Shown: positions 10,100-63,699 of the stretch, piece by piece
Numbering within the stretch: the stretch's first letter is position 1
Layout: every line of letters starts with the position of its first letter
NCBI GenBank assembly: GCA_964595565.1
Contig: CAZQQX010000006.1
Location: forward strand, 2,817-66,816
DNA length: 64,000 bases
Direction: 5' to 3'
Origin: an uncultured Actinomycetota bacterium
GTDB lineage: Bacteria > Actinomycetota > Humimicrobiia > Humimicrobiales > Humimicrobiaceae
Made by a program: the position numbers and the translations under genes
Notes under the pieces: model-generated
Databases searched by the model: none
Told to the model about the DNA's origin: nothing
Seen by the model: only the letters and a program-made list of their open reading frames with translations

Positions 10100-10151
10100 A
10101 TAAACTCAGGGAAGGCATCCTTCTAAACACCGGTTGTATATTATACTAAAA

Positions 10152-40185: not shown

Positions 40186-40222
40186 TTATTATCCCCGTAT
40201 TAACTCATTTTTATTATTTAAA

Positions 40223-41863: not shown

Positions 41864-41874
41864 AAAAATACCCG

Positions 41875-43287: not shown

Positions 43288-43318
43288 TTAAAACCTCACC
43301 TTACCTTTAATCAGGATA

Positions 43319-43717: not shown

Positions 43718-43772
43718 AATTTTAAGTATTTATTCTTATTAAACCCGCTTTTAGAAAAATCACCAGTTAAAA

Positions 43773-46094: not shown

Positions 46095-46179
46095 TATTTC
46101 TCCTCTGCCGCTTTAAAAATTATCCAAAAGCCTTTTTACGTTAAAAACTCCAGGTTATTTCTTTATTTCAAGATTGCAA

Positions 46180-47226: not shown

Positions 47227-47302
47227 AACGAAAAAATTAATAACAGAAATATTTTGAATACTTGCATCTTTTTAAATATAGCATCCGTGCTTGCTTAAAT
47301 AT

Positions 47303-49060: not shown

Positions 49061-51070
49061 ATGAGATTTATAATAATAATACTTCTAATTATTTTTTTAT
49101 CAATAAGCACCCTTTTAAGCATCGCCGTAATCAGTACAACAAAAGACGCCGAAAGCCGGGAAACCACTGCAGAAGGGCCGCTATCAGCAAAACCAAAAGA
49201 TAAAAATAAATTACCTGTCTCAAGGGTAGAAACAATAAATGATATACAAAAATTTTTTATTACTAATCGCGAATACATAAGTAAAGATATCAGTGACACC
49301 CCGGCCGGGGATACTGCTGATGGCCCTGAAACTCCGGATGATAAGGATGACAGTTCTTTAGATTCTGCAAACCAGGATGCAGAAGTAGCTGATAATAAAC
49401 AAAACGAAGATAGAGAAAATACGGATGAAGAAGAAACTACGGAAGAAGAGGAAGAAAACAGAGAAGAGATAAAAGCCGGTACCATAAAATTTTTTCTGGA
49501 TGGAGATATGGAAAACGGCATATACCTCGGGGAAACAACTTCAAACCTTGAATCTGCGGAAGCATTACAGCTGTACGGTGAGGATTTTATAAATACAGGT
49601 TTTAAATTTAACATTAAAAATGACAGTAATCTTAATCTTGAAGCCGGCTCTAACCACTATATTTATATTTACTTTTACACCCGGCAGTCAGAATGGGGCT
49701 ACACAAGACAACAGGTAAGTTTATCCGGAGAAGAAAAATGTGAGAAAAAAATTACCATATTTGTAGAAAAACCGGAAGATAAGATTATAACCTCCAGCCT
49801 AAAGATAATTAAAGGATGGGCTGTTGACCTTAGAAACAAAGAAAACCCCGGAATATCAAACATTGAAATCTACCTTGATGGACCGGAGAGTTATGGAAAA
49901 TTTATCGGGAACGCTGAATATGGAACCCCTAGAGAGGACGTTGCCGGCTATCTTGAAAATTCAAACTACTTAAATAGCGGTTATACATTTGAAAATCTGA
50001 TTGACCTTGAGCCCGGTTCCACCCACACTATATTCATTTATGCCTTTAGCTCCGTGGACAATTCGTTTAATTATGAAACAAGAGATATTTACTTATCCGG
50101 GATAAGAGAAGAAAAAGCAATAATTAATGCCAGGATTGACACACAAAAGTTCAATGATGAGAACATTATTGAAATAACCGGACTGGCAATTGATAAAAAT
50201 GTCCTTGAACAGTACCTTGAAGAAAAACGAAAGGCCGTGGAAGAGTCTTCAACAGATACCGGCCGGTACAATACCAAAAAAATAATATTTAATTCCAATA
50301 GAGATGGTAATGAAAATATATACAGTATAAATATTGACGGTACAGGACTCACCCGCCTGACCGGCAGCACTGGCAGCGACCTGTATCCGGAAGTATCGCC
50401 TGATGGAGAAAAAATTGCCTATACTGCTGATATAGGCGGGGTCTGGCAGATTATGGTTATGGACTGGAATGGTGATAATAAAAAGCAAATTACCACGGGC
50501 AACCATAGATGTGCCTATCCTTCCTGGTCTTATGACGGAAAATATATATATTTTGAGATATATAGTGATGGAGACTGGGAAATATATAGAATTAAAAGCG
50601 ACGGAACAGAGCAAAAAAGGCTTACCTTTAACCGCGACTCCCATGACTGGCACCCAACCGGGCATCCTTCTGAATATATGGTTATCTACGAATCAGGAAC
50701 TACCGGACATGAAAATATTTATGTAATGAATCACGACGGCTCCGGAAAAAGAAAAATATGTACTGATGGGCCAAGAAGAAGGGTCCCGGATGTATCACCG
50801 GACGGAAGTAAAATAACTTATATGAGATATTCTGATAGATACGCTGATATCTGGATTATGGATTATACCGGCCAGAATGAAACCAGGTTAAACAGCAACC
50901 CTGAAGAGGACGGCCACCCATCTTTTTCACCTGATGGGAAATATATAATTTATGAAGAAAGAAAAGGCTCCCGCGAAGATTTAATTTTAATAGATCTTGT
51001 CACTGGAGAAAAAACCAATCTGACTAATTCTTCATATATTGATAAAGATGGCAGTTTCCTTTACCGATAA
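49061..51070 (+). CDS. signal-anchored protein: acidic linker, two copies of an approximately 100-aa unassigned domain, and a C-terminal PD40/TolB-like beta-propeller
   Basis: N-terminal hydrophobic anchor, a D/E-rich segment, two internal repeats (IKFFLDGDMENGIYLGE... / IEIYLDGPESYGKFIGNAEYG...) and TolB-type PD40 repeats (NSNRDGNENIYSINIDG...SPDGEKIAYT... WSYDGKYIYFE). Confidence 0.7.
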   Translation: MRFIIIILLIIFLSISTLLSIAVISTTKDAESRETTAEGPLSAKPKDKNKLPVSRVETINDIQKFFITNREYISKDISDTPAGDTADGPETPDDKDDSSLDSANQDAEVADNKQNEDRENTDEEETTEEEEENREEIKAGTIKFFLDGDMENGIYLGETTSNLESAEALQLYGEDFINTGFKFNIKNDSNLNLEAGSNHYIYIYFYTRQSEWGYTRQQVSLSGEEKCEKKITIFVEKPEDKIITSSLKIIKGWAVDLRNKENPGISNIEIYLDGPESYGKFIGNAEYGTPREDVAGYLENSNYLNSGYTFENLIDLEPGSTHTIFIYAFSSVDNSFNYETRDIYLSGIREEKAIINARIDTQKFNDENIIEITGLAIDKNVLEQYLEEKRKAVEESSTDTGRYNTKKIIFNSNRDGNENIYSINIDGTGLTRLTGSTGSDLYPEVSPDGEKIAYTADIGGVWQIMVMDWNGDNKKQITTGNHRCAYPSWSYDGKYIYFEIYSDGDWEIYRIKSDGTEQKRLTFNRDSHDWHPTGHPSEYMVIYESGTTGHENIYVMNHDGSGKRKICTDGPRRRVPDVSPDGSKITYMRYSDRYADIWIMDYTGQNETRLNSNPEEDGHPSFSPDGKYIIYEERKGSREDLILIDLVTGEKTNLTNSSYIDKDGSFLYR

Positions 51071-51119: not shown

Positions 51120-51581
51120 TTAATCGGTAACCTGATGCCTGAACCTTTTGCTTGAAGCTCTGAGTTTTAATCTAACCGATGTACCCATGGAAATACCGAG
51201 CCACAGGCCCCAGACAGTTTCCCTGGAAAAGAAATAAAAAGCAAGCTCTGAAATAGTAAGACTGGAGTTAAACAGTTCAGTTACTACTGTATTTACCAGA
51301 CCGGTTTTATATAGCAATAGCGCAATAGCAGGTATACAGCCTGAAATCAAAAATGTTTTTATGTCAAAATAGTTCCTATTTACTATCGGCTTCATACTGA
51401 GAATTATCAGTAATCCAATCATAAACCCAAGAATAAGAACAATAATGAGCCTCAAAAAACTTAAAAAACCGGCCGGCAGGCTGTAAGCTGCCAGTGCGGC
51501 GGTAATATTATCAAAATATGCAAAAGCGGTATAATAGAGAATTATATTTATAAAACTGAATATGATAAGAAAAATTCTCAT
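51120..51581 (-). CDS. 4-TM membrane protein, unassigned family (paralogue of 53533..54063)
   Basis: 153 aa, four hydrophobic helices, convergent with the PD40 gene; about 45% identical to 53533..54063. Confidence 0.5.
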   Translation of the reverse strand: MRIFLIIFSFINIILYYTAFAYFDNITAALAAYSLPAGFLSFLRLIIVLILGFMIGLLIILSMKPIVNRNYFDIKTFLISGCIPAIALLLYKTGLVNTVVTELFNSSLTISELAFYFFSRETVWGLWLGISMGTSVRLKLRASSKRFRHQVTD

Positions 51582-51812: not shown

Positions 51813-53579
51813 ATGAGAACAGTAACTACAATTATTATAGTTTTGCTCCTGGTAGCTGTTATATTCCTCGGGTTTATAGTCTTAAAATATTCCGGAACAG
51901 GAACTCCTGCCGAAGAAGAAACTGCCGGGCCTGAAACAGGCGAACCCATAGTTGAAGAAGAGGAGCCAGAGCCTGTAGTTGAAGAAGAACCGGTTCAGGA
52001 AGTGAAAGAGGATGAAATCGCAGTAATCGAAATATATCTTGATGGTGACAGGAATAATGGCATACTGCTGGGAGAAGCAGAATATGGTATGGCCTCCCCG
52101 GAAGCTTATAATATCTATGGCGGGGAATTCTCAGAAAGCGGTTTTCTCCTGGCCGAAAAAAACAGAGCATACACCTTTGAGCCCGGCTCTACCCACTACC
52201 TTTATATCTATGTTCTTATACCGGAATATGGATGGAATTATACCCGCCAGAAGGTTAGCATCCCGGGCAGCGAAGAGACAGACGAAAATATCAGGTTATC
52301 TATAGATGACCCTTCCCACAATGAAACAATAAAAGAAGCTGATAAATCAAATATTAAAATTTCAGGCTGGTCAGTTGATGTCAGCCAGCAAAGTGACCCC
52401 GGTATTGACCGTATTGAAATATATCTAAACGGGCCTAAAGAATTCGGGAAGCCTGCCGGTGAAGTGGACTATGGAATTGAAAGACAGGATGTAGCCGGCG
52501 CTCTTGGAAACGCCGGTTATACCAGTTCCGGATATTTATTAAATTTTGACGGTAGTAATCTTGAAGCCGACAGCGAAAACACCCTGTATATCTACTCTTT
52601 CTCTACTTCAGGAACATATAACCTGGGCTTAAGAAATATTGTAATAGAAGGTGAAAAGAAGGAATCAATAGCCCTAATTTCAGCACAGGCTAACCTGAGC
52701 AATGAATCCATAGAGATAAGCGGCTGGGCAATAAATAAAGACCACATTACCGGAGGCAGACCGAGAGACCCCGATACAGAATACTCAACCAGAAAGATAG
52801 TATTTGCTTCCAGCAAAAATGGAAACGAGGATATATTCAGCATGAACATAGATGGTACCGAACTTACGCAGCTGACAGATTATTCCGGAAAAGACAATTA
52901 CCCTGCTGTTTCACCCGATGGTAAAAAAATTGCCTACACTTCAGATATCAATGGTGTCTGGCAGATAGTAGTTATGAACTGGGATGGAACCGAAAAGGAG
53001 CAGATTACCTACAATCCGTGGAGAAGCGGGTATCCTGCCTGGTCCTTTGATGGAAGATATATTTTCTTTGAAGCATACATAGAGGGCGACTATGAAATAT
53101 ACAGGATGAACAGTGATGGAAGCAATATGAAGAGAATTACATTCAATCCAAATATCCCGGACTGGCATCCTTACGGTCATCCTTTCCAGTACAGAGTCAT
53201 TTATGAATCAGGGACGTCAAGGAACGAAAAAATATATATGATGGATTATGACGGTACTAATATTAAACAGCTATCAGACGCAGACATGCGGCAGAGGGTC
53301 CCTGCAATTTCTATTGATGGAGAAACTATCGTTTTTAGTGACAATGAATCCGTTTATACTATAAATATCAATGGAGAAAATTTACAAAAAATCAGCGGGA
53401 ACCTCTCAAACAGCAGACACCCTGACATATCTCCGGATAATAAATATATAACCTTCGAGGGCAATGTTGACGGCCAGCTTGAAATATTTATAGTCAATGC
53501 CGATGGTTCAAACCTAAAGAGACTTACCAGTATTACTGGAAGTGATTATGACCCTGTTTTTCTGTATCAGGCTCCCTAG
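51813..53579 (+). CDS. paralogue of 49061..51070: signal-anchored repeat-domain / PD40 beta-propeller protein
   Basis: Same architecture: TM anchor, an E/P-rich linker, two IEIYL(D/N)G repeats and PD40 repeats; about 60% identical to gene 49061 in the propeller region. Confidence 0.7.
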   Translation: MRTVTTIIIVLLLVAVIFLGFIVLKYSGTGTPAEEETAGPETGEPIVEEEEPEPVVEEEPVQEVKEDEIAVIEIYLDGDRNNGILLGEAEYGMASPEAYNIYGGEFSESGFLLAEKNRAYTFEPGSTHYLYIYVLIPEYGWNYTRQKVSIPGSEETDENIRLSIDDPSHNETIKEADKSNIKISGWSVDVSQQSDPGIDRIEIYLNGPKEFGKPAGEVDYGIERQDVAGALGNAGYTSSGYLLNFDGSNLEADSENTLYIYSFSTSGTYNLGLRNIVIEGEKKESIALISAQANLSNESIEISGWAINKDHITGGRPRDPDTEYSTRKIVFASSKNGNEDIFSMNIDGTELTQLTDYSGKDNYPAVSPDGKKIAYTSDINGVWQIVVMNWDGTEKEQITYNPWRSGYPAWSFDGRYIFFEAYIEGDYEIYRMNSDGSNMKRITFNPNIPDWHPYGHPFQYRVIYESGTSRNEKIYMMDYDGTNIKQLSDADMRQRVPAISIDGETIVFSDNESVYTININGENLQKISGNLSNSRHPDISPDNKYITFEGNVDGQLEIFIVNADGSNLKRLTSITGSDYDPVFLYQAP

Positions 53580-54063
53580 CAAGTGATGGAAGCTCTACTT
53601 TTTCTTTTCCTTCAATTGAAACATGTTTGTATTTTCTTCCGGGAAAACTGAATCGGATTGATGAACCTATAGAAAAGCCCAGCCATATGGACCATATAGT
53701 CTGCCTTGAGAAAAGATAAAATACAAGCTCACTCAATCGTTCACTGGAGTTAAAAAATTTATTAATAATAAAGCTGGTAATTGTACCTTCAGATAGCACC
53801 ATACAGATAAAAGGGAAAAAACCGACTATCACCAGGTTCTTAAAACTAAAAAGGCTTCTTTTTATTTTTAATTTTAATACAAGCATCACTATTACACCTA
53901 TACAGAACCCGACAATTAACAGGACCGCCAGCTTAATATAATTTGCTGCTATTGCTGATATATCTAATCCTTCAAGAATCTCCAGAATCTTATCAAAATA
54001 AGAATAAATAAAAACATAAAAAACAGCATTAATAAAAGAAAAAACTATTAAAAAAACTCTCAA
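53533..54063 (-). CDS. 4-TM membrane protein, paralogue of 51120..51581
   Basis: MRVFLIVFSFINAVFY... / ...FNSSERLSELVFYLFSRQTIWSIWLGFSIGSSIRF align with the other copy; the 3' end overlaps the convergent PD40 gene by about 47 nt. Confidence 0.5.
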   Translation of the reverse strand: MRVFLIVFSFINAVFYVFIYSYFDKILEILEGLDISAIAANYIKLAVLLIVGFCIGVIVMLVLKLKIKRSLFSFKNLVIVGFFPFICMVLSEGTITSFIINKFFNSSERLSELVFYLFSRQTIWSIWLGFSIGSSIRFSFPGRKYKHVSIEGKEKVELPSLAREPDTEKQGHNHFQ

Positions 54064-54173: not shown

Positions 54174-56012
54174 TCAAAGTCTCTGTCCGATGCTGCCGAG
54201 ATACTGGGAAACATAACTATAGACTGTATGCGCCACAACCGAAGCACCTGCTGAACTGTAGTGCATGCCATCATTTAGATAGCCACCGGGATTCTGAGAA
54301 AGCGGAGTTGTAACATCTATAACCACTGCACCGTGCTTTGCAGCAATCTGCCTTATTGTGTCATTATATTTAGCATAATTTTCTTTTTCCGGCCAGTTCA
54401 GTGGCCCGATAAGGTTAACAAATACCCTTGCGCCAAGACTTTTTGCTTTTACAATCAGGCCCTCCATGCTAACCGAGAATCCGGAATAACGGGGACCCAC
54501 ATCATTGGTTCCATAGGCAATTATAACTATATCCGGATTATGCACAGCAACGGTGCTTTCAAATCTCGCATTCCCCTCACGGGTTAACTCGCCACTCTTC
54601 GCACTGGCAATGGTATTATACTCTGCATAGGGATAATTAGCCTCCAGAAGCTGGTCAAATGTCTGCACCCAGTTTGATTTAGCTATCAGTGAATCGCCCA
54701 TGGCTACAATAGTCACACTGGCATTCCCCCTTACATTCAGGCTTTTAGGCGGCAGCCCAACAACCGCATTGCTGCTTTCAATTTTAAAATGAGTGGTTAT
54801 TGTACCGCCTGAATTAGCCAGATTTTCATTCACCATTATCCTAAAAGTAATCTCTTTTTCCTCTTCTACGCCCAGGTTCTCAAGGTCCCAGATAAGCCCC
54901 CTTATATCATCGCTCCACCTTATACCCTCCGCGGTACCGGACCGGCTGACGTAAGTAGCCCCTTCCGGCGTGGGGCAGATAACACTATAATTTTCTTCTT
55001 TCTTCATACCGGTGTTTCTGACAATAATTTTTACACTTATAGTCTCTCCCGGGTATAGATTGCCTCCATTTGTATCGTATATATAGTTTTCCGATGTAGT
55101 TAAATCAGAAAACAGGCTCAGTTTTTCTTCCACTTTTTTTTCTATTACAATTGACCCGTATTTTAAAATACTTTCACCGGTTATAACTTCTTCGCCCATT
55201 AAGTCTTCTTTCACCCTGACCTTAAAGGAAAGAACCCTTTTTGTATTCACTTTAAGGTTGTCAATTTCCCATAATACGCTGTTATTGTTGTATTCCCCCT
55301 GGCCGGTAATAGAATCTTTGATTATGTCCGTGTATTCTGATATAGCACTTTTTATTTCAACACTGGATGCACTCATATCGCCATCATTTTTCACTGTTAA
55401 ATCATACCTCAGAACATCACCCAGCATGATGACCCCGCCATTCTCATCTACAGCTTTTACACTGAAGCTACTCAAATCAGGGCTACTTTCAACTTCGGCG
55501 GTCAGAACGGGGCTTATGGTATTATTAAACGTCTCTATCCCTATAAGGTAATTAAAATTCACCTTATCCAACATGATTACAGTACCATCATCCAGCGGGC
55601 TAATTACTTCCACCACAAAACACAGAGTACCTCTCTCGTTCTTCTTAACCTCTCCAATGTTAAAACCCAGTTTTTTGCCGTCCCCGGCAATGTTTAAAAC
55701 GTCACTGCGGTCCGATGACACAAAGGAAGTATGTTCCGGTAAACCAACTTCTATAACCAGTTTGCTTACATTCCTGTTACCCGTATTTTTGTAATTTACT
55801 GCATAAGTAATCCTGTCCCCCGGTTTTATATTATCCCCTGTATCACTGTATACATAATTAAAATTTTCATCATCAAAATTGGGTTCTGTCAGATAGAATT
55901 TAAAATAATAAATTAAAAAAGCAGCTGCAGCTATGCCCAGAGAACCGGCCACAATAAAAATCCACTTTTTATTACTTTTTATATAATCCAGTATTTTTTT
56001 AATTATCTTCAT
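54174..56012 (-). CDS. signal-anchored surface protein with DUF11-type repeat domains and a C-terminal SGNH/GDSL hydrolase domain
   Basis: GDRITYAVNYKNTGNRNVSKLVIEVGLPEHTSFVSS DUF11-like repeats. The C-terminus has VTIVAMGDSL (GDS block I) ... IVIIAYGTNDV (block III). The ATG at 56012 is preferred over the upstream TTG at 56084. Confidence 0.65.
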   Translation of the reverse strand: MKIIKKILDYIKSNKKWIFIVAGSLGIAAAAFLIYYFKFYLTEPNFDDENFNYVYSDTGDNIKPGDRITYAVNYKNTGNRNVSKLVIEVGLPEHTSFVSSDRSDVLNIAGDGKKLGFNIGEVKKNERGTLCFVVEVISPLDDGTVIMLDKVNFNYLIGIETFNNTISPVLTAEVESSPDLSSFSVKAVDENGGVIMLGDVLRYDLTVKNDGDMSASSVEIKSAISEYTDIIKDSITGQGEYNNNSVLWEIDNLKVNTKRVLSFKVRVKEDLMGEEVITGESILKYGSIVIEKKVEEKLSLFSDLTTSENYIYDTNGGNLYPGETISVKIIVRNTGMKKEENYSVICPTPEGATYVSRSGTAEGIRWSDDIRGLIWDLENLGVEEEKEITFRIMVNENLANSGGTITTHFKIESSNAVVGLPPKSLNVRGNASVTIVAMGDSLIAKSNWVQTFDQLLEANYPYAEYNTIASAKSGELTREGNARFESTVAVHNPDIVIIAYGTNDVGPRYSGFSVSMEGLIVKAKSLGARVFVNLIGPLNWPEKENYAKYNDTIRQIAAKHGAVVIDVTTPLSQNPGGYLNDGMHYSSAGASVVAHTVYSYVSQYLGSIGQRL

Positions 56013-56115
56013 TATTAATACACAATTATTTTTACCACCATTAAATTCGTTAAAAACAATTCCAATATTATAGCAAAAAGACAACCTCTAGATAAAGTAT
56101 TATTTGAGCGGGCTT

Positions 56116-57717
56116 TTACCTTATCTCTATTTCAATATCATCACAATTAATATAATTATTTTTGTAAGTCGCCCTGAATTTTACAACAGACCGTCCGGAA
56201 TCGGTGCCCCTGACTTTAACCATTAAATTAATCTGACCATTACTATCTATAATATATGAATCGCTTACCCACATATATACACCCTCACTTAAACCCGGAT
56301 ATTGTTTTACGTATCCTTCAGGGCTGACTCCGGTCAGCTCAACGTTATCCGGAAGCTCAAGTTCCAGTGAAGTGATCCCGGCCCCATCTTCACCGGTATT
56401 GCCTATAATAAATTCTATGATAAATTCTTCTCCCTCTTTTTTTATCTTATCACCAGCTTCATAGCTAATTTCAATACTTCTATCCAGATTTAAATAATTA
56501 ACATACTGTTCGGGAGAAATCAGGCTGTTAAACTCCACTCTCTTCATATTAAAGAGGTCAATTGTCTCTGTATCCTCTGCCCCGCCGGCATGCCTTAACG
56601 CACCTCTGTAGCCGGCTTCCACAAATAAAGGCGTTTTATCAGGATTATAATTTCCCTTTGGTAGCGCAACAAATAAAACTTCATTTCCCAGATGGGATTC
56701 AATATCCTCTTTTGATCGGGTAAGTTCATATAAAATTGTCTCATCGTAAGCAATTCCCAGCCTGACATGATTTACTGTATGGGATTGAAACTCGCAACCA
56801 TATTCATACATTTCTTTAATCTCGGGCCATATAAGTATCGGGCGTATGGGCCTGTCCGCACTGGCTTCTTTCTCAAAATATGCATTTGTTTTTCTATCAG
56901 CTTCAGTATCCCCTATTGCGCCGGTTACCAGAAATACAGTCATCCTGTACCCGTACTTTTTAAGAATGGGGAACCCATTGGTATAAACATCCTGAAACCC
57001 GTCATCGGATGTTATAATTACCGGTTTTTCAGGCAGCGACCTGCCGAAATCTATGTAATCTAAAAGCTCCTTCAACGTAATAGTCTCGTAACCATACTCT
57101 TTTAATACGCCGCACAGTTTGTCAAAGTGGCCGGTATAAAGCTCTATCGGCTCTTCAATATGATCCTCTATGGCATGCATGCCTATTATGGGAATAAAAA
57201 CTCCATCAAATTGTCTTTCACCGTAAACCAGCATTTTACAATCAGGACCTATAAAAGAGTCTACTTCATCTGAAGATATCTCCAGCCCGACCTCAGCCCG
57301 GGTGTCCTCATTTATATCATCTATTAAAGTCAGACCGGTTACAAAATTACTTTCTTCCCCCGCTCCAAGAACATCTATATTCCATGATGTCCGCCCGATG
57401 CCTGGTTCAAACAGGTCGTGAGTTATAAGATTAACTTCCACATTTTTTGCTTCCGCACCGCCGCTATTTACCACACTTATATTTACCTTTATATCTTCAC
57501 CTCCATATGTATTTCCGCCATTTGCATCAATTAGTTCTATATAAGAACCGGAAAATGATGGCAATGGCCCCTCTCCGGACGAACTGGCGTCACTATCACC
57601 GCTGCTTATAACCTGTTCAAACCCAGAACAGCCGGTAAAAATTACCGGAAAAATTATTATAAAAGCAAATAAAACTTTTATATTATTCTTTTTAATGAGT
57701 TTTCTCACTGCAAACAT
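56116..57717 (-). CDS. lipoprotein with a NodB-type polysaccharide deacetylase domain and a C-terminal DUF11-like beta-sandwich domain
   Basis: Lipobox VIFTGCSG. PIITSDDGFQDVYTNGFPILKKYGYRMTVFLV is the NodB motif 1/2 region. The C-terminal approximately 105 aa are shared with the gene at 57823. Confidence 0.75.
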   Translation of the reverse strand: MFAVRKLIKKNNIKVLFAFIIIFPVIFTGCSGFEQVISSGDSDASSSGEGPLPSFSGSYIELIDANGGNTYGGEDIKVNISVVNSGGAEAKNVEVNLITHDLFEPGIGRTSWNIDVLGAGEESNFVTGLTLIDDINEDTRAEVGLEISSDEVDSFIGPDCKMLVYGERQFDGVFIPIIGMHAIEDHIEEPIELYTGHFDKLCGVLKEYGYETITLKELLDYIDFGRSLPEKPVIITSDDGFQDVYTNGFPILKKYGYRMTVFLVTGAIGDTEADRKTNAYFEKEASADRPIRPILIWPEIKEMYEYGCEFQSHTVNHVRLGIAYDETILYELTRSKEDIESHLGNEVLFVALPKGNYNPDKTPLFVEAGYRGALRHAGGAEDTETIDLFNMKRVEFNSLISPEQYVNYLNLDRSIEISYEAGDKIKKEGEEFIIEFIIGNTGEDGAGITSLELELPDNVELTGVSPEGYVKQYPGLSEGVYMWVSDSYIIDSNGQINLMVKVRGTDSGRSVVKFRATYKNNYINCDDIEIEIR

Positions 57718-57822
57718 TACATGCTTCCATCTTTTTACTTTATCTATTTACCCGCCTTATTTTTTATCAATATAGCAGAATAAATCTAATAAACTAATAA
57801 ATCCAGGTTAATTCTTTTTAAT

Positions 57823-59715
57823 TTAATCTTTTATCTCTATTCCTAAACTGTCACAGTCAACGTAAAACCCGCCGGTTGTCAGTCTAAATTTTATAAATGA
57901 CTCACCGGGCGCCATTCCTTTTAGTTTTACAATCAAGTTTATCTCTTCCCCGCCCTCTATGACATATGAATCACTTACCCACATATATATACCCTGGCTC
58001 AGGCCGGGGTCCTGGCTGATATACCCTCCGGGGGAAGTTTCTATGAATTCAATATTTTCAGGAAGCTCAAGCTCAAATGATGTAATCTTAATTCTTTCTT
58101 TATTCTTATTCCTGACAATATATTCAATGGTGAATTCCTCCCCGAACCTTCTGGTATAACTATCGCTAAAGTAGCTAATTTCAGGAATAGACGCTGCAGG
58201 TTCAGTAACCCTGAACAGTCTTAACCATTCGTCATACCTGCTCCATAAATAACTTTTCCCCACCTGTTCGGCATTAAATAATTTTTTTATTACCTCTTCA
58301 TTGCCCACATAATATACTGTAATACCATCTTCAAGAGCTTCCATCATATTGCTTGCCGTATATTCCGGCACCTTATGAGATATATATTTTATGTTTTTGT
58401 CTCCATACTCATATTTGTCCACAAACATCCCGATATTTGTTGATTTAGCCAGGGCATACACCCTGGAATTACTTTCCATATTCTTAAACGCTTCATCCCA
58501 GAATTTATAAACGTAAGAAACCTCCGAATGGTCAAGCGAAGGATAATTTTCTATTATCAGGCCGGCCGGTATAAAAAGAAAAAACAATAATATGATAGTG
58601 ACCAGAAAATATTTTAAGAATTTATCAATCCCCAGAACCTTTCTTCCCATTAATGACTTAATAAACAGCAGAATCACCCCATCCAGTATAAACAGCAACC
58701 CGAAAGCAATATAAAAAGAAAATACAATCATTGAATACAGTAAATAATTTCTGAGTGCATGCCCTGCATATAATGGAGGAAAAACAAAGTTTACAATCAC
58801 CAGCAAAAATGTGCACAGGGCAAACTTTACATTTTTTTTGACCAGAATGATAAATCCTATAAGCGCTATGATAAGAAGCAGGATACCATAACTTTCATAA
58901 AACATACCAAGGTAATCTTTAATTACCTTTAATATTAATGAAATGCTCTTGTCCCCAAAACTTCCTCCATGGACTTCCCCTGTTACACCCCTTCCGGTTA
59001 TATAATAGAAAAATTTTAAAGGGCCGGTTACTTCCCCGTAACCCTGGAGCGACCTTATGGGAAGATACAGATATGATAAAAGAGGCAGAATAAAATATAA
59101 TATGCTGATTATAATTGCCTTTGCGCTTTTAAAAATCCCCGGATTCACAATAATAACATATAAAATAATGACCGGGACCAGGAAAAAAACAAGAGGGTGG
59201 TTGGTTAAACTTAACCCCAGGCAGAAAGCAAAAAAATAAAGATACTTTCTGGTTTTATTTTCATTATAGGTAATAGCCGAAAAAAACAATAAAGTCATAA
59301 AAAAAGTCTGTAATGTATCAAATTCCAGCCTGTTTGCCACTTCCCAGAAAGGCACGGCAAAAGCAAATATCATTGAACTTATAAAGCTTACGAACACATT
59401 TTTTACCAGTTTATTAATTGATAGGAATAAAAATAAAATGGTAAGTGCGCCGAAGATTGCTGAAAAAAGATTGAGCCTGTAAGCTATATCTCCAACCGGC
59501 AGTAAGGTAAAAAGCTTTTCCAGCATGGAAAAAACCGGATATCCGGTAGGAACCATAAGACTCATTTCGGTAACCTGAAGAGCGTACCATGCAGTATCCC
59601 CGCCTATTAGTTTACGTTCCAGAGTCATAAGATAAATAACCAGGGGAACAGCAAAAGAAAGAATTGATAATATAACTGCCTGTTTTCCTGTTATGAATGC
59701 TTTAACCTTCTCCAA
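57823..59715 (-). CDS. polytopic GT-C-fold membrane glycosyltransferase-like protein (DUF2723/TMEM260- and ArnT/PMT-like) with a C-terminal DUF11-like extracytoplasmic domain
   Basis: More than 10 predicted TM helices. An early loop GGDTAWYALQV...VPTGYPVF resembles the DUF2723 HPPGYPL region. The soluble C-terminal domain is about 55% identical to the C-terminus of the deacetylase. Confidence 0.55.
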   Translation of the reverse strand: MEKVKAFITGKQAVILSILSFAVPLVIYLMTLERKLIGGDTAWYALQVTEMSLMVPTGYPVFSMLEKLFTLLPVGDIAYRLNLFSAIFGALTILFLFLSINKLVKNVFVSFISSMIFAFAVPFWEVANRLEFDTLQTFFMTLLFFSAITYNENKTRKYLYFFAFCLGLSLTNHPLVFFLVPVIILYVIIVNPGIFKSAKAIIISILYFILPLLSYLYLPIRSLQGYGEVTGPLKFFYYITGRGVTGEVHGGSFGDKSISLILKVIKDYLGMFYESYGILLLIIALIGFIILVKKNVKFALCTFLLVIVNFVFPPLYAGHALRNYLLYSMIVFSFYIAFGLLFILDGVILLFIKSLMGRKVLGIDKFLKYFLVTIILLFFLFIPAGLIIENYPSLDHSEVSYVYKFWDEAFKNMESNSRVYALAKSTNIGMFVDKYEYGDKNIKYISHKVPEYTASNMMEALEDGITVYYVGNEEVIKKLFNAEQVGKSYLWSRYDEWLRLFRVTEPAASIPEISYFSDSYTRRFGEEFTIEYIVRNKNKERIKITSFELELPENIEFIETSPGGYISQDPGLSQGIYMWVSDSYVIEGGEEINLIVKLKGMAPGESFIKFRLTTGGFYVDCDSLGIEIKD

Positions 59716-59762
59716 TATATGCTTCCTTTTATTTTTTTATTTAAAAATTTAAAAACCGACAT

Positions 59763-60101
59763 TTACAGATTAAATATTATAACTCCGGCAATAACCAGGA
59801 TATTGCCCGCAATTCTTAACCTGTCAATATCTTCTCTGAGAATACACCATGAAAATAACATTATAAAAAAGTAGCTCAGCGCCGTAAAGGAATAAAAATT
59901 TGAAAAATCAATCACTCTCATAGTGATTATGGAAAGAACCGGAACAAGCAAAAATAAAAATATACTTATTAAAAGATATTTATTCTTAAAATTGCAGGTA
60001 AAGGGCTTCCTGAAATCTACCTTTTTTGCTCCTATCTTGAGTATAACCTGGGCCAGGGCAACCAGAAATTGAGTTACAACCGCCAAAAAAATATAAAGCA
60101 T
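59763..60101 (-). CDS. small 4-TM EamA/SMR-type protein (ArnE/ArnF-like flippase subunit)
   Basis: 112 aa half-size DMT protein immediately downstream of a second one: the paired arrangement typical of ArnE/ArnF. Confidence 0.6.
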   Translation of the reverse strand: MLYIFLAVVTQFLVALAQVILKIGAKKVDFRKPFTCNFKNKYLLISIFLFLLVPVLSIITMRVIDFSNFYSFTALSYFFIMLFSWCILREDIDRLRIAGNILVIAGVIIFNL

Positions 60102-60104
60102 AAT

Positions 60105-60527
60105 TTATACCCCTTCCAGCTTCTTACTGGACATAGTTATAATAAAAACTCCTGCTACTATAACAGCCGAACCGATAATTTTTTTTAAAGTAACGGGCTC
60201 GCCAAATAAAATTTTGCCCAGGAACAAAGAAAAAAAGTAATTTAAGCTCAGGAGCGGATATATAAAAGAGAGCTTAAACTTCCTGTGCAGGATAAACCAT
60301 AACACAAATTTAAGGCCGTAAGTCAGAGACATCACAGACAGCCAGAAGGCAAAAACCCTTGAGAGTTCAAGATTCATGCCTATATATTTTCCCGCAATTA
60401 TACTCAGTAGATTAATGCTGATGGCAAGAATAACTATAAGAATATAAAAAATTTTTTTATCGGTATCCCTAAATTTCATTTTTGATTTTTCCCCTGCGAA
60501 AAGGGCCAAACTAATATTTTGAAACAC
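60105..60527 (-). CDS. small 4-TM EamA/SMR-type protein (ArnE/ArnF-like flippase subunit)
   Basis: 140 aa, four TM helices; 3 nt from the partner gene. Confidence 0.6.
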   Translation of the reverse strand: MFQNISLALFAGEKSKMKFRDTDKKIFYILIVILAISINLLSIIAGKYIGMNLELSRVFAFWLSVMSLTYGLKFVLWFILHRKFKLSFIYPLLSLNYFFSLFLGKILFGEPVTLKKIIGSAVIVAGVFIITMSSKKLEGV

Positions 60528-60693
60528 ATTTTATACTAAAACTAATGAAATTATAAGTTTTTATAATTTTTTTCAAATTAAAGGAAAAATATAAAAACAT
60601 CTTAAAGCCTACTATTTTTTATGTTATAGTAATAAAATTATTTTAGTTAAGTTAAAGTCTGTCAAAATATCAGGTAATTTTAAAAAAGGAAAT

Positions 60694-61650
60694 ATGGCTA
60701 AAAAACTGCTGGTTGCGATTCCCGCATATAACGAGGAAGAAAAAATAGGCGAAGTAATACTGAACATTCCCAAAAAAATTAAGGGGATATCAAAAATCCA
60801 TGTCCTTGTTATTGATGACGGTTCCACAGATAAAACGGCAAAAATTGCTGCCGGCTCGGGTGCCGAAGTAATAAAGAACCACTATAATATGGGGTACGGA
60901 GTGGCATTCGGCAGAGCTCTTCAGTACGCTGTTGAAAATAACTTTGATTTAATGGTCAGTATTGACGGAGATTCACAATTCAATCCAGAAGACATACCCC
61001 TGCTCATTTACCCTATCATTAAAAACGAAGCTGATATGGTGACCGCCTCCCGTTTTATTGACAAAAAATACTATCCCGTTATGCCCCTGTCTAAATTCTG
61101 GGGAAATAAAATGATGTCTATTTTAATCAGCAAACTAATCGGGAAAAAATTTTATGATGTATCATGCGGCTTCAGGGCATATTCACAAAAAACCCTTCTT
61201 TCACTGAACCTGCATGGGAAATTTACTTTTTCCCAGGAAACATTTATTGACTTATCTTTTAAAGGAATCAAAATTATGGAGGTCCCCGTGAAGGTAAAAT
61301 ATTTTCCTTCACGTGTCTCAAAAATATCTTCCAACCTTTTCACATACGGTATAAATTCACTCAAAATAATTCTTGAAACTTACAGGGACCACAGGCCATT
61401 TACCTTTTTTTCATATATTGCCCTGTTCTTTTTTATAGTAAGCATCTTCTTCGGTTCTATTTTGCTGTACACTTATATTTCAATTGGCTCATTTCACCCG
61501 AATGTCTGGTCGGGATTTGTAGGAGGAACTTTCCTGTTCATTTCGGTAACTTTTTTTATTATAGGCATATCGGCAGATATAATTAAAAGAATCAGAGTTA
61601 ATCAGGAAGAAATTCTATACCTTTTAAAGAAAAATTCTCAAAGAAAATAA
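60694..61650 (+). CDS. polyprenyl-phosphate glycosyltransferase (GT2; ArnC/GtrB/DPM1-like) with C-terminal TM helices
   Basis: LLVAIPAYNEEEKIGEVI...IHVLVIDDGSTDKTAKIA...SIDGDSQ GT-A motifs followed by two C-terminal TM helices, the GtrB/ArnC architecture; transcribed divergently from the flippase pair. Confidence 0.8.
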   Translation: MAKKLLVAIPAYNEEEKIGEVILNIPKKIKGISKIHVLVIDDGSTDKTAKIAAGSGAEVIKNHYNMGYGVAFGRALQYAVENNFDLMVSIDGDSQFNPEDIPLLIYPIIKNEADMVTASRFIDKKYYPVMPLSKFWGNKMMSILISKLIGKKFYDVSCGFRAYSQKTLLSLNLHGKFTFSQETFIDLSFKGIKIMEVPVKVKYFPSRVSKISSNLFTYGINSLKIILETYRDHRPFTFFSYIALFFFIVSIFFGSILLYTYISIGSFHPNVWSGFVGGTFLFISVTFFIIGISADIIKRIRVNQEEILYLLKKNSQRK

Positions 61651-61915: not shown

Positions 61916-62932
61916 TTAAGCATCCCTGTCGTCTTCTTCCTTAAATTTTCTTTCAAAATAAGGCCTTACTATATACACAATCCCACCCACCAGTCCGATC
62001 AGAATTAGCATAAATAATATTAATAGAGAGCAAAGGGCAGCTTTCTCATTTACCACACCCATGGCAACCATAATAAAAACCAGTGAATTTTCCCTCAGGC
62101 CTATACCGCCGACAGAGATGGGAATCATAGCTATAGTTGACACCACCGGAACAATGAAAATAAATGCAGCAAGGCTGAGCTCAATTCCAAGAGCCCGGGC
62201 AGCCAGATACCAGTTCAATATAACAGCAAACTGGAGAAGGAAGCTATAGACTAAAACTTTTAAAAGCACTATTTTATGGTTTTTAAAACTCATAAGCGTG
62301 TTATAAGCGCTGGATAACTTTTCCTTTATTTTATTTATAAATCCGAACCTTTTTAAGAATTTGCCTATGCCAAAAATTGACGGTTTAATAATTATTAAAG
62401 CTATAATTACAACAATTACAAAAAAGATAACTATAGGAATTATCACAGGCTGATTCCCAATAGCGGTAAAACCTAAAAATAAGGCTGCTACAGCATAGAC
62501 AGACGCGCTTACCACACCGGAAAATCTTTCTACCAGAATTACAGAAGCCGATGAGCTTAAGGGAATTTTTGCCTTCTTTGAAGCATCAATAGTTCTGAAC
62601 ACATCGCCCCCTATACTGGTGGGCAAAAAATTATTAAAAAATAAACCTATAAGCACCGTAACACTTAAACTGGCTGTGCTTAGTTTCACATTCTGGGTAT
62701 CTAAAAGTGCTTTCCACCTTAATGCTGTTATCCAGGTGCCAAAAATATGAGTGGATAACGAAAGAAGAAGCAGAATTTTACTGGATGATTTTAAAATCTC
62801 AACTATACTGGAAAAATTTTTAAACTGTGTCTTAACCAGATAAAAAATCAGTAAAATACTGATTACAATTCTTAATGTCAGAAGTATTGATTTTCTATTC
62901 TTCTTATAGAAAGAAATAAACTTGTTCTTCAT
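61916..62932 (-). CDS. UPF0104 / lysylphosphatidylglycerol-synthase-TM-region-like flippase-like membrane protein
   Basis: Eight predicted TM helices; TALRWKALLDTQNV...FFNNFLPTSIGGDVFR matches the UPF0104 (MprF TM-domain-like) signature. Confidence 0.6.
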   Translation of the reverse strand: MKNKFISFYKKNRKSILLTLRIVISILLIFYLVKTQFKNFSSIVEILKSSSKILLLLSLSTHIFGTWITALRWKALLDTQNVKLSTASLSVTVLIGLFFNNFLPTSIGGDVFRTIDASKKAKIPLSSSASVILVERFSGVVSASVYAVAALFLGFTAIGNQPVIIPIVIFFVIVVIIALIIIKPSIFGIGKFLKRFGFINKIKEKLSSAYNTLMSFKNHKIVLLKVLVYSFLLQFAVILNWYLAARALGIELSLAAFIFIVPVVSTIAMIPISVGGIGLRENSLVFIMVAMGVVNEKAALCSLLILFMLILIGLVGGIVYIVRPYFERKFKEEDDRDA

Positions 62933-62955
62933 TTTATTATGCAGGTAAAATTTAA

Positions 62956-63699
62956 TTATTTTCTGGACTTTGTAACCTTCGCTGGCACCCCCGAGGCAAT
63001 ACAGTAAGGCGGGATATCTTTTGAGACTACAGCTCCTGCTCCGATTATAGTATCATTACCTATAGAAACCCCATCAAAAACTATAGCCCCTGCTCCTATC
63101 CAGCAATTCTCATCTACTTTTATACCATAGAATGTTTTTTTCTGCTCCGATACCGGGATATCCACCCTGGAATAGTCATGCCCTCCTCCAGTGATATAAA
63201 CATAGGCTGCAATTAAGGTATTTTCCCCTATAGCCACCCTGCTTCCCGAAAATATTTCACTATTAAACCCTATAACCACATTATCTCCGATGCTTATATC
63301 TCCATTTTTACAGCTCAGTATACTATTTCTACCGATAAATATATTTTTGCCCAGATTAATACCATTATTATCCAGCCCCTTGGCATCCAGAACGCAGTAG
63401 TCGTCTATCACAACATTATCATCAATAGTTATTTTATGGGGGTGCCTTACAGTTATTGATTTTCCAAAACTTACTCCCTTTCCCACCTTTTTAAATAACG
63501 CCGGATAAAATAAGTTCCTAAAAAAGATGCCGATGGCTCCGGGCATATCCTGGAAAAGAATGGTTATTATTTCGTATTTTAATAAGTTAAAAAAGCCTTT
63601 CTTTCCCACAAACAGGTCCACATACTTGGCAATTTTTGACTTTTTTCTGGAAAAAAGTTCTTTTTGTATCCTGTCTTCATATCTTTCTATTACAATCAA
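62956..63699 (-). CDS. hexapeptide-repeat (LbH) acetyltransferase, WcaF/NodL/LacA-like sugar O-acetyltransferase
   Basis: C-terminal IGDNVVIGFNSEIFSGSRVAIGENTLIAAYVYI...IGAGAIV hexapeptide repeats. Confidence 0.7.
   Translation of the reverse strand: MIVIERYEDRIQKELFSRKKSKIAKYVDLFVGKKGFFNLLKYEIITILFQDMPGAIGIFFRNLFYPALFKKVGKGVSFGKSITVRHPHKITIDDNVVIDDYCVLDAKGLDNNGINLGKNIFIGRNSILSCKNGDISIGDNVVIGFNSEIFSGSRVAIGENTLIAAYVYITGGGHDYSRVDIPVSEQKKTFYGIKVDENCWIGAGAIVFDGVSIGNDTIIGAGAVVSKDIPPYCIASGVPAKVTKSRK

Follow-up and report, generated by a model that had tools for sequence, protein, structure and literature searches.

Five genes at positions 56116-61650 of the window (the whole 64,000-nucleotide stretch of DNA that was analyzed) very probably load one sugar on a lipid carrier, flip it, and attach it to a target at the cell surface. 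The fuller reading that we favor, with modest confidence, is that of a three-component system for extracytoplasmic, lipid-linked glycosylation, coupled to a deacetylase that unmasks an amine on the same glycoconjugate. All five open reading frames were confirmed at the coordinates given in a first-pass annotation of this DNA, and the Pfam match of each of the five proteins is at or above its gathering score. Because full-length homologs of all five are found in dozens of metagenome-assembled genomes (MAGs), these are genuine genes and not chance open reading frames. Promoter and terminator scans of the module stayed at chance level and do not support an operon structure.

The GT2 gene (60694-61650, plus strand, 318 aa) is transcribed divergently from the remaining genes of the module. 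Its product matches the Pfam family Glycos_transf_2 with 81 bits against a gathering score of 23.3 (E 1.2e-22). The top NCBIfam matches are all polyprenyl-phosphate sugar synthases, every one below its cut-off: AglJ (124.9 bits), Dol-P-hexose transferase (88.1), PpgS (73.3), and ArnC (56.6). The closest solved structures are those of ArnC (9bhc, 9hwj, and 8vxh; E ~1e-13, residues 3-291 aligned), followed by Dol-P-Man synthase (5mlz) and GtrB (5ekp), and two TM helices are located at the C-terminus (residues 242-260 and 279-297). Judged by its sequence, the protein is a polyprenyl-phosphate glycosyltransferase of the ArnC/GtrB/Dol-P-Man-synthase type, and the features that the first-pass annotation had expected of such an enzyme are present on alignment. 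It would transfer one sugar from a sugar nucleotide to polyprenyl phosphate at the cytoplasmic face. No sequence feature of this GT2 identifies the donor sugar, the AglJ, PpgS, and ArnC scores being far below the family cut-offs, nor is the enzyme of the PpgS type (73.3 against a cut-off of 370, with no DUF2304 partner).

Two small DMT proteins are encoded next to it on the minus strand, subunit a at 60105-60527 (140 aa) and subunit b at 59763-60101 (112 aa), with b beginning 3 nt downstream of a. The likely start of subunit a is M17 at 60479, giving a protein of 124 aa: homologs align from residues 13-17 on, the counterpart in the related locus L001 was called as 124 aa, and a Shine-Dalgarno-like GGGG lies upstream of this ATG. 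For EamA, with a cut-off of 28.2, subunit b scored 31.6 and subunit a a borderline 28.2. The best NCBIfam matches are the flippase subunits ArnE and ArnF, as had been proposed for this half-size pair, though below the cut-offs: subunit a matches ArnE (1.3e-10, 41.4 against 92) and ArnF (3.5e-9, 37.2 against 99), and subunit b matches ArnF (1.1e-4, 22.6 bits against 99). A crude hydropathy scan found 3-5 hydrophobic segments in each protein. On these sequence matches the pair is a plausible flippase, closest to ArnE/ArnF among named relatives, and as a pair of 4-TM proteins would flip the polyprenyl-phosphate sugar to the outer face.

The putative transferase (57823-59715, minus strand, 630 aa) falls in the TMEM260-like/DUF2723 family (PF11028, 90.3 bits against a gathering score of 24.2) and also matches PMT_2 (30.5 against 26.1), with zero matches in NCBIfam. 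PF11028 is found in all 120 listed homologs except one partial protein (P0110). A profile of the protein matched the solved TMEM260 with an E-value of 1e-20, the homology being detectable over ~210 N-terminal residues only. The membrane (catalytic) module covers residues 1-395 (58531-59715) and carries Asp40 of a GGD motif in its first external loop; this motif is invariant in 34 sequences and aligns with GGD52 (TMEM260 D52) of 9rql. The protein is a GT-C fold member of the TMEM260/DUF2723 family with the catalytic Asp kept, and the fold assignment of the first-pass annotation held. It is followed by an extracytoplasmic alpha/beta region at residues 396-507 (58195-58530), delimited from the secondary structure of an AF2 model, and by a C-terminal beta-sandwich domain at residues 508-630 (57823-58194 with the stop codon). 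The alpha/beta region has no Pfam family but is conserved in fragments P0127-P0136, which also carry the C-terminal domain. Metazoan TMEM260 shares the Pfam family and the GGD catalytic Asp, but has a TPR domain where the window protein has these two regions. No characterized bacterial member of the family was found in the literature consulted.

The GT-C enzyme would move the sugar to an extracytoplasmic acceptor. The most probable one is a cell-wall glycopolymer produced by the large glycosyltransferase cluster of the same region, in which seven glycosyltransferases flank the module. The sugar could instead be transferred to Ser/Thr of secreted or surface proteins, as actinobacterial Pmt and S. 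mutans Pgf do from a lipid carrier, with the neighboring DUF11/CLIPPER, CARDB, or PD40 proteins and their acidic or Ser-rich linkers as candidate acceptors. TMEM260, the sole characterized member of the family, is an O-mannosyltransferase specific for proteins, with Ig-like IPT domains as its target (PMC10214176), its catalytic Asp is conserved here, and the conserved neighborhood encodes many anchored proteins that bear Ig-like beta-sandwiches and low-complexity linkers. PgfS was among the top three NCBIfam families of the GT2s encoded beside remote DUF2723 genes (top in one of the three tested). Fold comparison of the GT-C puts Pmt4, Pmt1, and Pmt2 near the top, but ArnT, PglB, and ALG12 match equally well. 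Furthermore, the missing TPR domain is the presumed protein-recognition part of TMEM260, no conserved sequon was found in any candidate acceptor, and the PplD/PgaB-type partner and the glycosyltransferase cluster fit a glycopolymer better. We therefore consider protein O-glycosylation improbable and retain the glycopolymer as the likelier acceptor.

The partner in question is the deacetylase (56116-57717, minus strand, 533 aa), whose open reading frame lies exactly at the coordinates it had been given. Its signal peptide and lipobox (residues 1-30, 57628-57717) include part of a hydrophobic segment at residues 15-33 and end in FTGC; as the first-pass annotation had noted, this is a lipobox, and its C30 is invariant in 33 homologs (consensus GCS). 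A low-complexity linker and a CARDB-like beta-sandwich follow (residues 31-175, 57193-57627; CARDB E-values 6.4e-5 over the full protein and 4.8e-4 with this region by itself), with beta strands at residues 59-165 in the structure model. The CE4/NodB catalytic domain spans residues 176-410 (56488-57192), and a second copy of the beta-sandwich of the GT-C C-terminus, to which it is paralogous, occupies residues 411-533 (56116-56487 with the stop codon). Polysacc_deac_1 (PF01522) matched with 83.5 bits against a gathering score of 23.1 (E 1.5e-23). By sequence the protein matches PplD (6dq3) at 1.7e-14, and PplD is also the first hit in Foldseek (E 1e-16, target TM-score 0.85), followed by IcaB (0.78), the N-terminal domain of PgaB (0.75), and BpsB. 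The metal triad (Asp, His, His) and the catalytic His and Asp of a NodB domain are all present: H181, D238, D239, H313, H317, and R393 are invariant among homologs and align with H105, D167/D168, H223/H227, and R302 of PplD (PMC8807736), the His, Asp-Asp, His-x3-His, and Arg set being common to these CE4 relatives. The protein is an intact CE4 enzyme of the PplD/PgaB/IcaB type and a lipoprotein. The best NCBIfam matches are PgaB (67.7 against a cut-off of 321.9) and IcaB (45 against 248), so far below the equivalog cut-offs that orthology to either was rejected. The window protein also differs from streptococcal PplD and the PNAG deacetylases PgaB, IcaB, and BpsB by its CARDB-like and private C-terminal domains, its lipoprotein anchor, and its coupling to a GT-C instead of a PNAG synthase, no PgaC/IcaA-type synthase being adjacent to it.

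ArnD acts at the cytoplasmic face. The likeness to ArnD suggested by the first-pass annotation was not borne out: no ArnD match was obtained at E<=0.01, and the signal peptide, the invariant lipobox Cys, and the PplD/PgaB/IcaB relatives rule out a deacetylase of that type.

The C-terminal domain common to the deacetylase and the GT-C, seen previously, was confirmed (GT-C residues 478-629 against deacetylase residues 387-533, 45% identity, E 3e-35). It is a beta-sandwich of ~120 aa for which no Pfam family exists, and the window holds only these two copies. Among 1.84 billion proteins it forms 57 clusters, essentially all GT-C-type or deacetylase-type, and 17 columns are invariant across both types, including QxPGxSxGxYMWVSDxY. 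The domain most likely brings the two enzymes together or to a common target; its fold resembles generic cohesin/CLIPPER/Ig-like modules, and it could also be a mere spacer or wall anchor.

Conservation of the module was analyzed in the 32 related loci whose flanks extend 2 kb or more on each side, 21 of type A and 11 of type B. A GT2 gene is found no more than 3 kb from the GT-C in 30/32 loci and the deacetylase within 5 kb in 24/32, in three different orientations, so the genes are kept together, as the first-pass annotation had supposed. The DMT pair is kept in 21/32. Remote DUF2723 genes of other phyla have an adjacent polyprenyl-phosphate-type GT2 in 10/10 cases. L021 has its deacetylase, GT2, and DUF2304 genes in a row on one strand, divergent from the GT-C, while L037, L042, and L052 have the deacetylase and the GT-C in convergent orientation. 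The deacetylase is missing from the GT-C flanks in 1/21 type-A and 7/11 type-B loci; present in 4/11 of the latter, it is a non-obligatory partner. Most loci come from a single clade of uncultured Actinomycetota, and the colinear synteny therefore partly reflects shared ancestry. The deacetylase is tied more strongly to the transferase than was visible to the first-pass annotation, as their adjacency survives rearrangement and the domain they share is all but confined to these two enzyme types.

These data bear on another reading, which we regard as unlikely, where the glycosylation system adds a neutral hexose to a surface polymer and the deacetylase is functionally independent. The CE4 lipoprotein and the neighboring SGNH enzyme would then act on peptidoglycan, a PNAG-like exopolysaccharide, or O-acetyl groups, with the shared domain as an envelope anchor or spacer. 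The 8/32 loci with no deacetylase beside the GT-C are consistent with this, as are the resemblance of the shared domain to generic cohesin/CLIPPER/pilin-type beta-sandwiches and the CARDB domain and DUF11-GDSL neighbor, such modules being common on envelope enzymes here. Likewise, the hexose transferases AglJ and Dol-P-hexose transferase among the best matches of the GT2 would suit a neutral sugar. However, the confinement of the shared domain to two enzyme types, with its invariant loop motif in both, and an adjacency that outlasts rearrangement, including the three-gene row of L021, argue for a coupled deacetylase, and the GT2s of sister loci point to HexNAc.

In the four DMT-less sister loci examined (L021, L029, L037, and L052), the GT2 is paired with a Pfam-confirmed DUF2304 protein, and PpgS is the best NCBIfam family of these GT2s (91-209 bits, below the equivalog cut-off). 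GacI and PpgS are the two characterized DUF2304-partnered synthases, making Und-P-GlcNAc and polyprenyl-P-GalNAc, respectively (10.1101/180810). A HexNAc donor is plausible because these loci use PpgS/GacI-like GT2s with DUF2304, a combination not known outside HexNAc-phosphate-lipid synthases. The characterized close relatives of the deacetylase all remove N-acetyl groups from GlcNAc within polymers (PMC8807736). Some MAGs hold both type-A and type-B GT-C loci, so that the two types may use different sugars, which weakens the type-B argument for the window.

In the coupled reading, the CE4 lipoprotein would de-N-acetylate the same glycoconjugate and so expose a free amine, which makes a HexNAc the most likely sugar. 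A model of this kind, in which a HexNAc is installed and its amine then unmasked, had been put forward in the first-pass annotation and is plausible; we infer its donor, acceptor, post-transfer order, and effect on charge, and its one independent line of support is the PpgS/GacI-like GT2 and DUF2304 pair of the sister loci. Deacetylation could come before transfer, with the flipped lipid-linked donor as substrate, or follow it. That the lipoprotein acts first on polyprenyl-P-HexNAc, the GT-C then transferring HexN and the shared domains forming a channelling complex, is in our view doubtful. In M. tuberculosis and C. glutamicum, lipid-linked GalNAc reportedly undergoes flipping and deacetylation, by factors not yet identified, ahead of GT-C transfer (PMC9671496), the window deacetylase is lipid-anchored, and cohesin-like folds are protein-protein interaction modules. 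Against this order, a disordered linker of ~25 residues and the CARDB domain separate the lipid anchor from the catalytic domain, and the characterized relatives PplD, PgaB, and IcaB are extracytoplasmic enzymes that de-N-acetylate polymer-bound GlcNAc, creating positive charge (PMC8807736).

Among known systems, the Gtr-type ones (GtrA/GtrB/Gtr*, CsbB/GtcA/YfhO, GacI/GacJ/GacK/GacL, and pentofuranose systems; PMC11127046) follow the same logic, with a GT2, a small flippase candidate, and a GT-C clustered. All four features compared are found for this module: a GT2 synthase, an adjacent candidate flippase, a GT-C with a catalytic acidic residue in its first external loop, and components kept together across genomes; the sister loci use a GacI/GacJ-type pair of GT2 and DUF2304. 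Extra extracytoplasmic glycan-binding domains are known on GT-C enzymes such as ORF12 (a CBM), Emb, and AftD (PMC11127046), and the window GT-C similarly bears an extra extracytoplasmic domain. The module differs in having a TMEM260/DUF2723 GT-C, an ArnE/F-like DMT pair as the flippase candidate and not GtrA, Wzx, or MATE, and a genetically coupled CE4 deacetylase sharing a private domain with the transferase.

In the Arn pathway of lipid A aminoarabinose, ArnC is the solved protein closest to the full-length GT2, ArnE and ArnF are the best families of the two small proteins, ArnT is one of the top GT-C fold matches, and N-acyl removal after lipid loading follows a similar logic. However, every component misses the equivalog cut-off (for the GT2 and ArnC, 56.6 against 529), the deacetylase is an extracytoplasmic lipoprotein, and the host is actinobacterial with no evident lipid A context. 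The reported lack of ArnA/ArnB holds where ORFs were scanned, no such aminotransferase or formyltransferase/decarboxylase genes being found at 0-12 kb and 35.6-64 kb of the window or, over 10 kb to each side, in two syntenic loci, L001 and L002.

In mycobacterial and corynebacterial arabinogalactan (PpgS/Rv3632/Rv3779; Cgp_0394/0393/0658), polyprenyl-P-HexNAc is made and flipped, loses its N-acetyl group, and serves a GT-C that adds the sugar to a wall polysaccharide, leaving a free amine (PMC9671496, PMC3485146). The phylum is the same, and a GT2 makes polyprenyl-P-HexNAc there, with a DUF2304 partner as in the sister loci, whose GT2s have PpgS as best family below the cut-off. That pathway still lacks an identified flippase and deacetylase, for both of which the window encodes explicit candidates, and the window GT2 is of the ArnC type with TM helices and not a PpgS with DUF2304. 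Amine-unmasking versions are also described for Francisella and Bordetella lipid A. To call the module an undescribed system was overstated, as three-component lipid-linked glycosylation is a well-known class (PMC11127046) and amine unmasking has been described for arabinogalactan GalN (PMC9671496).

Other neighbors were identified on the minus strand. A membrane-anchored protein with three DUF11/CLIPPER stretches and an SGNH/GDSL hydrolase domain (54174-56084; DUF11 4e-26, Lipase_GDSL_2 7e-19) is encoded 31 nt downstream of the deacetylase. Its gene is colinear in type-A loci and also found near the GT-C in L021, L039, L051, and L052; the protein is possibly a further glycan-modifying enzyme. 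Module membership is uncertain for a flippase-like LPG_synthase_TM membrane protein (61916-62932; PF03706 1.4e-39, TIGR00374 76.6 bits, above cut-off) and a WcaF/WbbJ-like hexapeptide-repeat acetyltransferase (62956-63699; Hexapep 2.2e-14, WcaF-family 98.4 bits, below cut-off), whose genes form a separate travelling block located elsewhere in L002. CE4 enzymes include O-deacetylases, and the nearby SGNH hydrolase and hexapeptide acetyltransferase permit an O-acetyl alternative.

The module at 56116-61650 comprises five genes, whose open reading frames lie exactly where the first-pass annotation had placed them and whose products all match Pfam families at or above gathering scores, with one EamA match exactly on the threshold. 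Four are on the minus strand: the 533-aa deacetylase (56116-57717; Polysacc_deac_1 and CARDB), the 630-aa polytopic protein (57823-59715; TMEM260-like and PMT_2) and two small membrane proteins of 112 aa (59763-60101) and 140 aa (60105-60527), both EamA-type half-transporters (DMT pair), lying 3 nt apart. The fifth gene, divergent from the other four on the plus strand, encodes a 318-aa GT2 (60694-61650; Glycos_transf_2). The true start of the 140-aa protein is probably M17 (60479), because a GGGG ribosome-binding motif is found there and homologues also begin at this position. Co-transcription of the module genes is suggested by the short intergenic gaps (3-110 nt) only; a search for promoters and terminators between 53 and 62.2 kb found 34 candidates of the first kind (32.3 expected) and 5 of the second (7.4 expected), which is no evidence on operon structure.

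The best-supported reading of these genes is a three-component extracytoplasmic glycosylation system with a coupled lipoprotein of the NodB-type deacetylase family CE4. The GT2 would charge polyprenyl phosphate with one sugar residue, the DMT pair would flip the lipid-linked sugar, and the polytopic protein would transfer it outside the membrane. The CE4 lipoprotein would de-N-acetylate the same glycoconjugate, presumably after transfer and possibly with an effect on surface charge. Gene identities, folds, catalytic residues, the export signal and genetic coupling were observed directly; the sugar, its flipping, the acceptor, the timing of deacetylation and any change in charge are deduced from them.

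The polyprenyl-phosphate glycosyltransferase architecture claimed for the GT2 was borne out. All of its top NCBIfam families are synthases of polyprenyl- or dolichyl-phosphate sugars (AglJ, 124.9 bits; Dol-P-hexose transferase, 88.1; PpgS, 73.3; ArnC, 56.6; all far below equivalog cut-offs). The nearest solved structures by sequence are three ArnC entries, matched over residues 3-291 with the membrane part included, followed by the Pyrococcus Dol-P-Man synthase and GtrB, and hydrophobic helices are present at residues 242-260 and 279-297. For the small membrane proteins, the best NCBIfam relatives are ArnE (1.3e-10) and ArnF (3.5e-9 and 1.1e-4). The proposed ArnE/ArnF arrangement stands as a resemblance, but not as orthology, since these scores are below the cut-offs.

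The AlphaFold2 model of the polytopic protein, built from 34 homologues, has a mean pLDDT of 85.7 and a pTM of 0.78. Foldseek comparison with the PDB placed the GT-C enzymes PglB, ArnT (target TM-score 0.60), STT3, ALG12, Emb, DPY19 and Pmt on top, which agrees with the initial assignment as a GT-C; a transporter, the other identity considered, is ruled out by these fold matches. The family profile matches the solved human TMEM260 over residues 27-237 (E 1.1e-20). Moreover, the first external loop carries a 'GGD' motif whose Asp40 is invariant and aligns exactly with TMEM260 Asp52, a residue that has been tested as the D52A mutant and that superposes structurally on the catalytic Asp77 of Pmt1 (PMC10214176). 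Beyond the last TM helix, the GT-C continues as an alpha/beta region (approximately residues 396-507) and then a beta-sandwich (508-630); a TPR domain is absent from the C-terminus of the model. No characterised bacterial member of DUF2723/TMEM260 was found in our literature searches.

The deacetylase is built from a signal sequence, a disordered Ser/Gly/Asp linker, a CARDB-like beta-sandwich, the CE4 domain and a C-terminal beta-sandwich. Its signal sequence is hydrophobic and ends in FTGC, with Cys30 invariant in 33 homologues. By sequence, the nearest solved protein is 6DQ3 (PplD), followed by PgaB, BpsB and IcaB; the fold search likewise gave PplD as the top match (E 1e-16, target TM-score 0.85), with IcaB and PgaB behind it. 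PplD is the extracytoplasmic de-N-acetylase of the linkage-unit GlcNAc of the streptococcal group A carbohydrate, and its catalytic and zinc-binding residues are His105, Asp167/Asp168, His223/His227 and Arg302 (PMC8807736). These align with the invariant His181, Asp238-Asp239, His313, His317 and Arg393 of the deacetylase which, on the strength of these residues and the lipobox cysteine, looks active and extracytoplasmic. The characterised members of its subgroup de-N-acetylate GlcNAc in polymers. The analogy to ArnD drawn earlier was not sustained: nothing ArnD-like was found past CE4 membership, and orthology is ruled out by the PplD/PgaB/IcaB-type matches.

The GT-C and the deacetylase do share a C-terminal domain, as had been claimed: residues 478-629 of the former and 387-533 of the latter are 45% identical (E 3e-35). 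No further copy was found in the window. This private domain has no Pfam family, and a permissive scan returned only noise. A profile was built from 15 copies, drawn from both protein types, and has 17 invariant columns including QxPGxSxGxYMWVSDxY. A word-indexed protein search with the 120-aa domain alone scored 7 candidates and gave 1 match, and an exhaustive search of the profile against 1.84 billion representative proteins was used instead. It yielded only 57 clusters at E<=0.001. The strong matches are of two kinds, deacetylase-type proteins of about 530 aa and GT-C-type proteins of 617-711 aa, besides fragments of either; giant surface proteins gave weak multi-repeat matches only. The structure of the domain is similar to that of cohesin modules and of the CLIPPER (DUF11) domain. 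Because it is so restricted and its invariant loop is kept in both enzymes, it argues that the GT-C and the deacetylase meet a common partner, be it a ligand or each other.

The closest relatives are metagenome-assembled genomes (MAGs) labelled uncultured Actinomycetota, Candidatus Humimicrobiaceae or Ca. Hydromicrobium. Scanning GTDB species genomes gave 61 loci, tabulated by tblastn with the window proteins, and neighbourhoods were counted in the 32 loci having a GT-C of >=40% identity and >=2 kb on both flanks. The genes stay together, as the first-pass annotation required: a GT2 lies <=3 kb from the GT-C in 30/32 loci and the deacetylase <=5 kb from it in 24/32, and the DMT pair is present in 21/32. 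In these 21 type-A loci, the order GT2 / DMT-DMT-GT-C-deacetylase-DUF11·GDSL is essentially colinear, with the deacetylase in 20/21; this partly reflects shared ancestry, since the genomes are related. The rearranged type-B loci are more informative on coupling. For example, the deacetylase, a 228-aa GT2 and a DUF2304 gene are consecutive on one strand, divergent from the GT-C, in L021; the deacetylase is convergent with the GT-C in L037, L042 and L052, and lies 0.8-2.3 kb from it in L030 and L039. It is missing from the flanks of 7/11 type-B loci and of one type-A locus (L002), and is thus a frequent, not an obligatory, partner.

The gene directly downstream of the deacetylase in the window (54174-56084, minus strand) encodes a membrane-anchored protein in which three DUF11/CLIPPER repeats are combined with a C-terminal SGNH/GDSL hydrolase. 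This gene is conserved with the deacetylase, and in the rearranged loci L021, L039, L051 and L052 it is also found close to the GT-C; its product may be a third extracytoplasmic modifying enzyme, acting for example in O-acetyl handling.

More remote DUF2723 genes from other phyla (L055-L064; Zixibacteria and Ignavibacteria; 24-33% identity) encode proteins without the private C-terminal domain and are followed by a GT2 in 10/10 loci, so the pairing of a GT-C with a lipid-sugar synthase is general across the family. The three of these GT2s that we tested (L055, L059 and L061) are ArnC/PgfS-like.

The family is also paralogous within genomes, since two GT-C loci were found in single MAGs (L041 and L053 in CAZTUA01; L025 and L046 in JALHTA01), with copies in one genome showing, for example, 71% and 44% identity to the window protein. 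At L043:3063-7758, one short GT2 is followed by tandem paralogous TMEM260-like GT-Cs (645 and 635 aa), both ending in the private domain; by analogy to Gtr serotype-converting systems, this suggests that acceptor or linkage specificity has diversified.

The donor sugar is most likely a HexNAc, judging indirectly from the type-B loci and from the PplD-type de-N-acetylase partner. In the type-B loci without a DMT pair that were examined, a GT-C of the window family with the private domain is accompanied by a short soluble GT2 and a DUF2304 protein. The best NCBIfam family for these GT2s is PpgS, the polyprenyl-P-GalNAc synthase, with scores (209, 185, 96 and 91 bits) that are all below the curated cut-off of 370, a caveat on the HexNAc assignment. 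Two DUF2304-partnered synthases have been characterised: GacI/GacJ, which makes Und-P-GlcNAc (10.1101/180810), and PpgS/Rv3632, which makes polyprenyl-P-GalNAc (PMC3485146). Some MAGs carry both locus types, so the sugars of types A and B need not match. The HexNAc-to-amine pathway is a plausible proposal.

Sugar-nucleotide genes near the GT2 orthologue in L002 and L030 were considered as a donor clue and rejected, being generic polysaccharide genes that are not conserved in the window. They comprise a truncated nucleotide-sugar dehydrogenase, RmlD, an AsnB-type amidotransferase and SDR epimerases. In a clade of 56-57% identity, the dehydrogenase (L002:8286-9050, also in L030; 254 aa; TIGR03026 137.5 bits, cut-off 189.8) is an insertion that separates the GT2 orthologue from the DMT pair. 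L002 has a bona fide RmlD past the GT2 on that side, with the amidotransferase flanking the GT-C on the opposite one.

As for the acceptor, a wall glycopolymer is favoured on three grounds: the flanking glycosyltransferase cluster, the activity of the deacetylase's relatives on polymers, and the glycan-binding modules already described on GT-C enzymes (PMC11127046). The cluster consists of seven minus-strand glycosyltransferase genes in a row (38141-48877; GT2, GT2, GT4/GT1, GT2, a 773-aa GT1-containing protein, GT2 and GT1); it is likely a glycopolymer backbone cluster and could supply the acceptor. A protein acceptor, as for TMEM260, is the less likely alternative, and lipid A was set aside because Arn orthology is lacking and the host is an actinobacterium.

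Between this cluster and the module, which lies downstream, is a two-gene unit duplicated in tandem, each copy made up of a membrane-anchored PD40 beta-propeller surface protein bearing an acidic low-complexity linker (49061-51070 and 51813-53579, plus strand) and a convergent small multi-TM protein without a Pfam family (51120-51581 and 53533-54063, minus strand). In most type-A loci, the second copy keeps its synteny with the glycosylation module.

The system class is well known, and the window version differs in its parts. The module works like the Gtr-type three-component systems (PMC11127046). Its layout is like that of Arn, but its components all miss the Arn equivalog thresholds; of the Arn-like interpretation first offered, the anatomy and the logic stand and the ArnD analogy does not. 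The same amine-unmasking logic underlies the modification of lipid A with GalN or GlcN in Francisella (FlmF/NaxD/FlmK) and Bordetella (LgmABC), whose deacetylases belong to another family. Functionally, the closest analogue is the mycobacterial/corynebacterial arabinogalactan-GalN pathway. Distinctive here are the TMEM260/DUF2723-family GT-C, the ArnE/F-like pair combined with it, and the private domain common to transferase and deacetylase.

If the model is true, it gives the first functional context for a bacterial TMEM260/DUF2723 GT-C, a family whose sole characterised member is a human disease gene. It would also offer testable candidate classes for the arabinogalactan-GalN flippase and deacetylase steps, listed as unidentified in the literature, namely an ArnE/F-like DMT pair for the former and, for the latter, an extracytoplasmic PplD-type CE4 lipoprotein. 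A private targeting domain common to a transferase and its finishing enzyme would be a neat means of linking extracytoplasmic steps that follow one another. Since the organisms are uncultured and the class is familiar, the impact would be moderate and limited to specialists. In a bolder version, which we regard as a long shot, the TMEM260-family GT-C and a co-evolved CE4 enzyme with the same private cohesin/CLIPPER-like domain would form a physically coupled 'install and unmask' machine placing HexN on Ig-like-domain surface proteins of deep-branching Actinomycetota, a prokaryotic counterpart, and possibly ancestor, of metazoan TMEM260 IPT-domain glycosylation. If true, bacterial DUF2723 would thereby gain its first assigned function.

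Elsewhere in the window, a tmRNA (tag peptide ANDNELALAA) adjoining smpB was located at 9747-10634 on the minus strand; the presence of tmRNA and SmpB shows the DNA to be bacterial. The first 12 kb carry housekeeping genes (IlvD, Fpg, a LigD phosphoesterase domain and an S41 peptidase). Over positions 1-64000, GC skew is strongly negative across minus-strand genes; at 6-8 and 50-54 kb, where the coding strand is plus, it rises to about zero or just above, and thus tracks the coding strand. Finally, an LPG_synthase_TM 'flippase-like' protein and a hexapeptide acetyltransferase are encoded beside the module (61916-63699, minus strand). They belong to a separate conserved block (also at L001:1419-6300 and L002:15066-19861), in which they travel with an SDR epimerase, another GT2 and a radical-SAM/SPASM protein, and which lies away from the module in L002.
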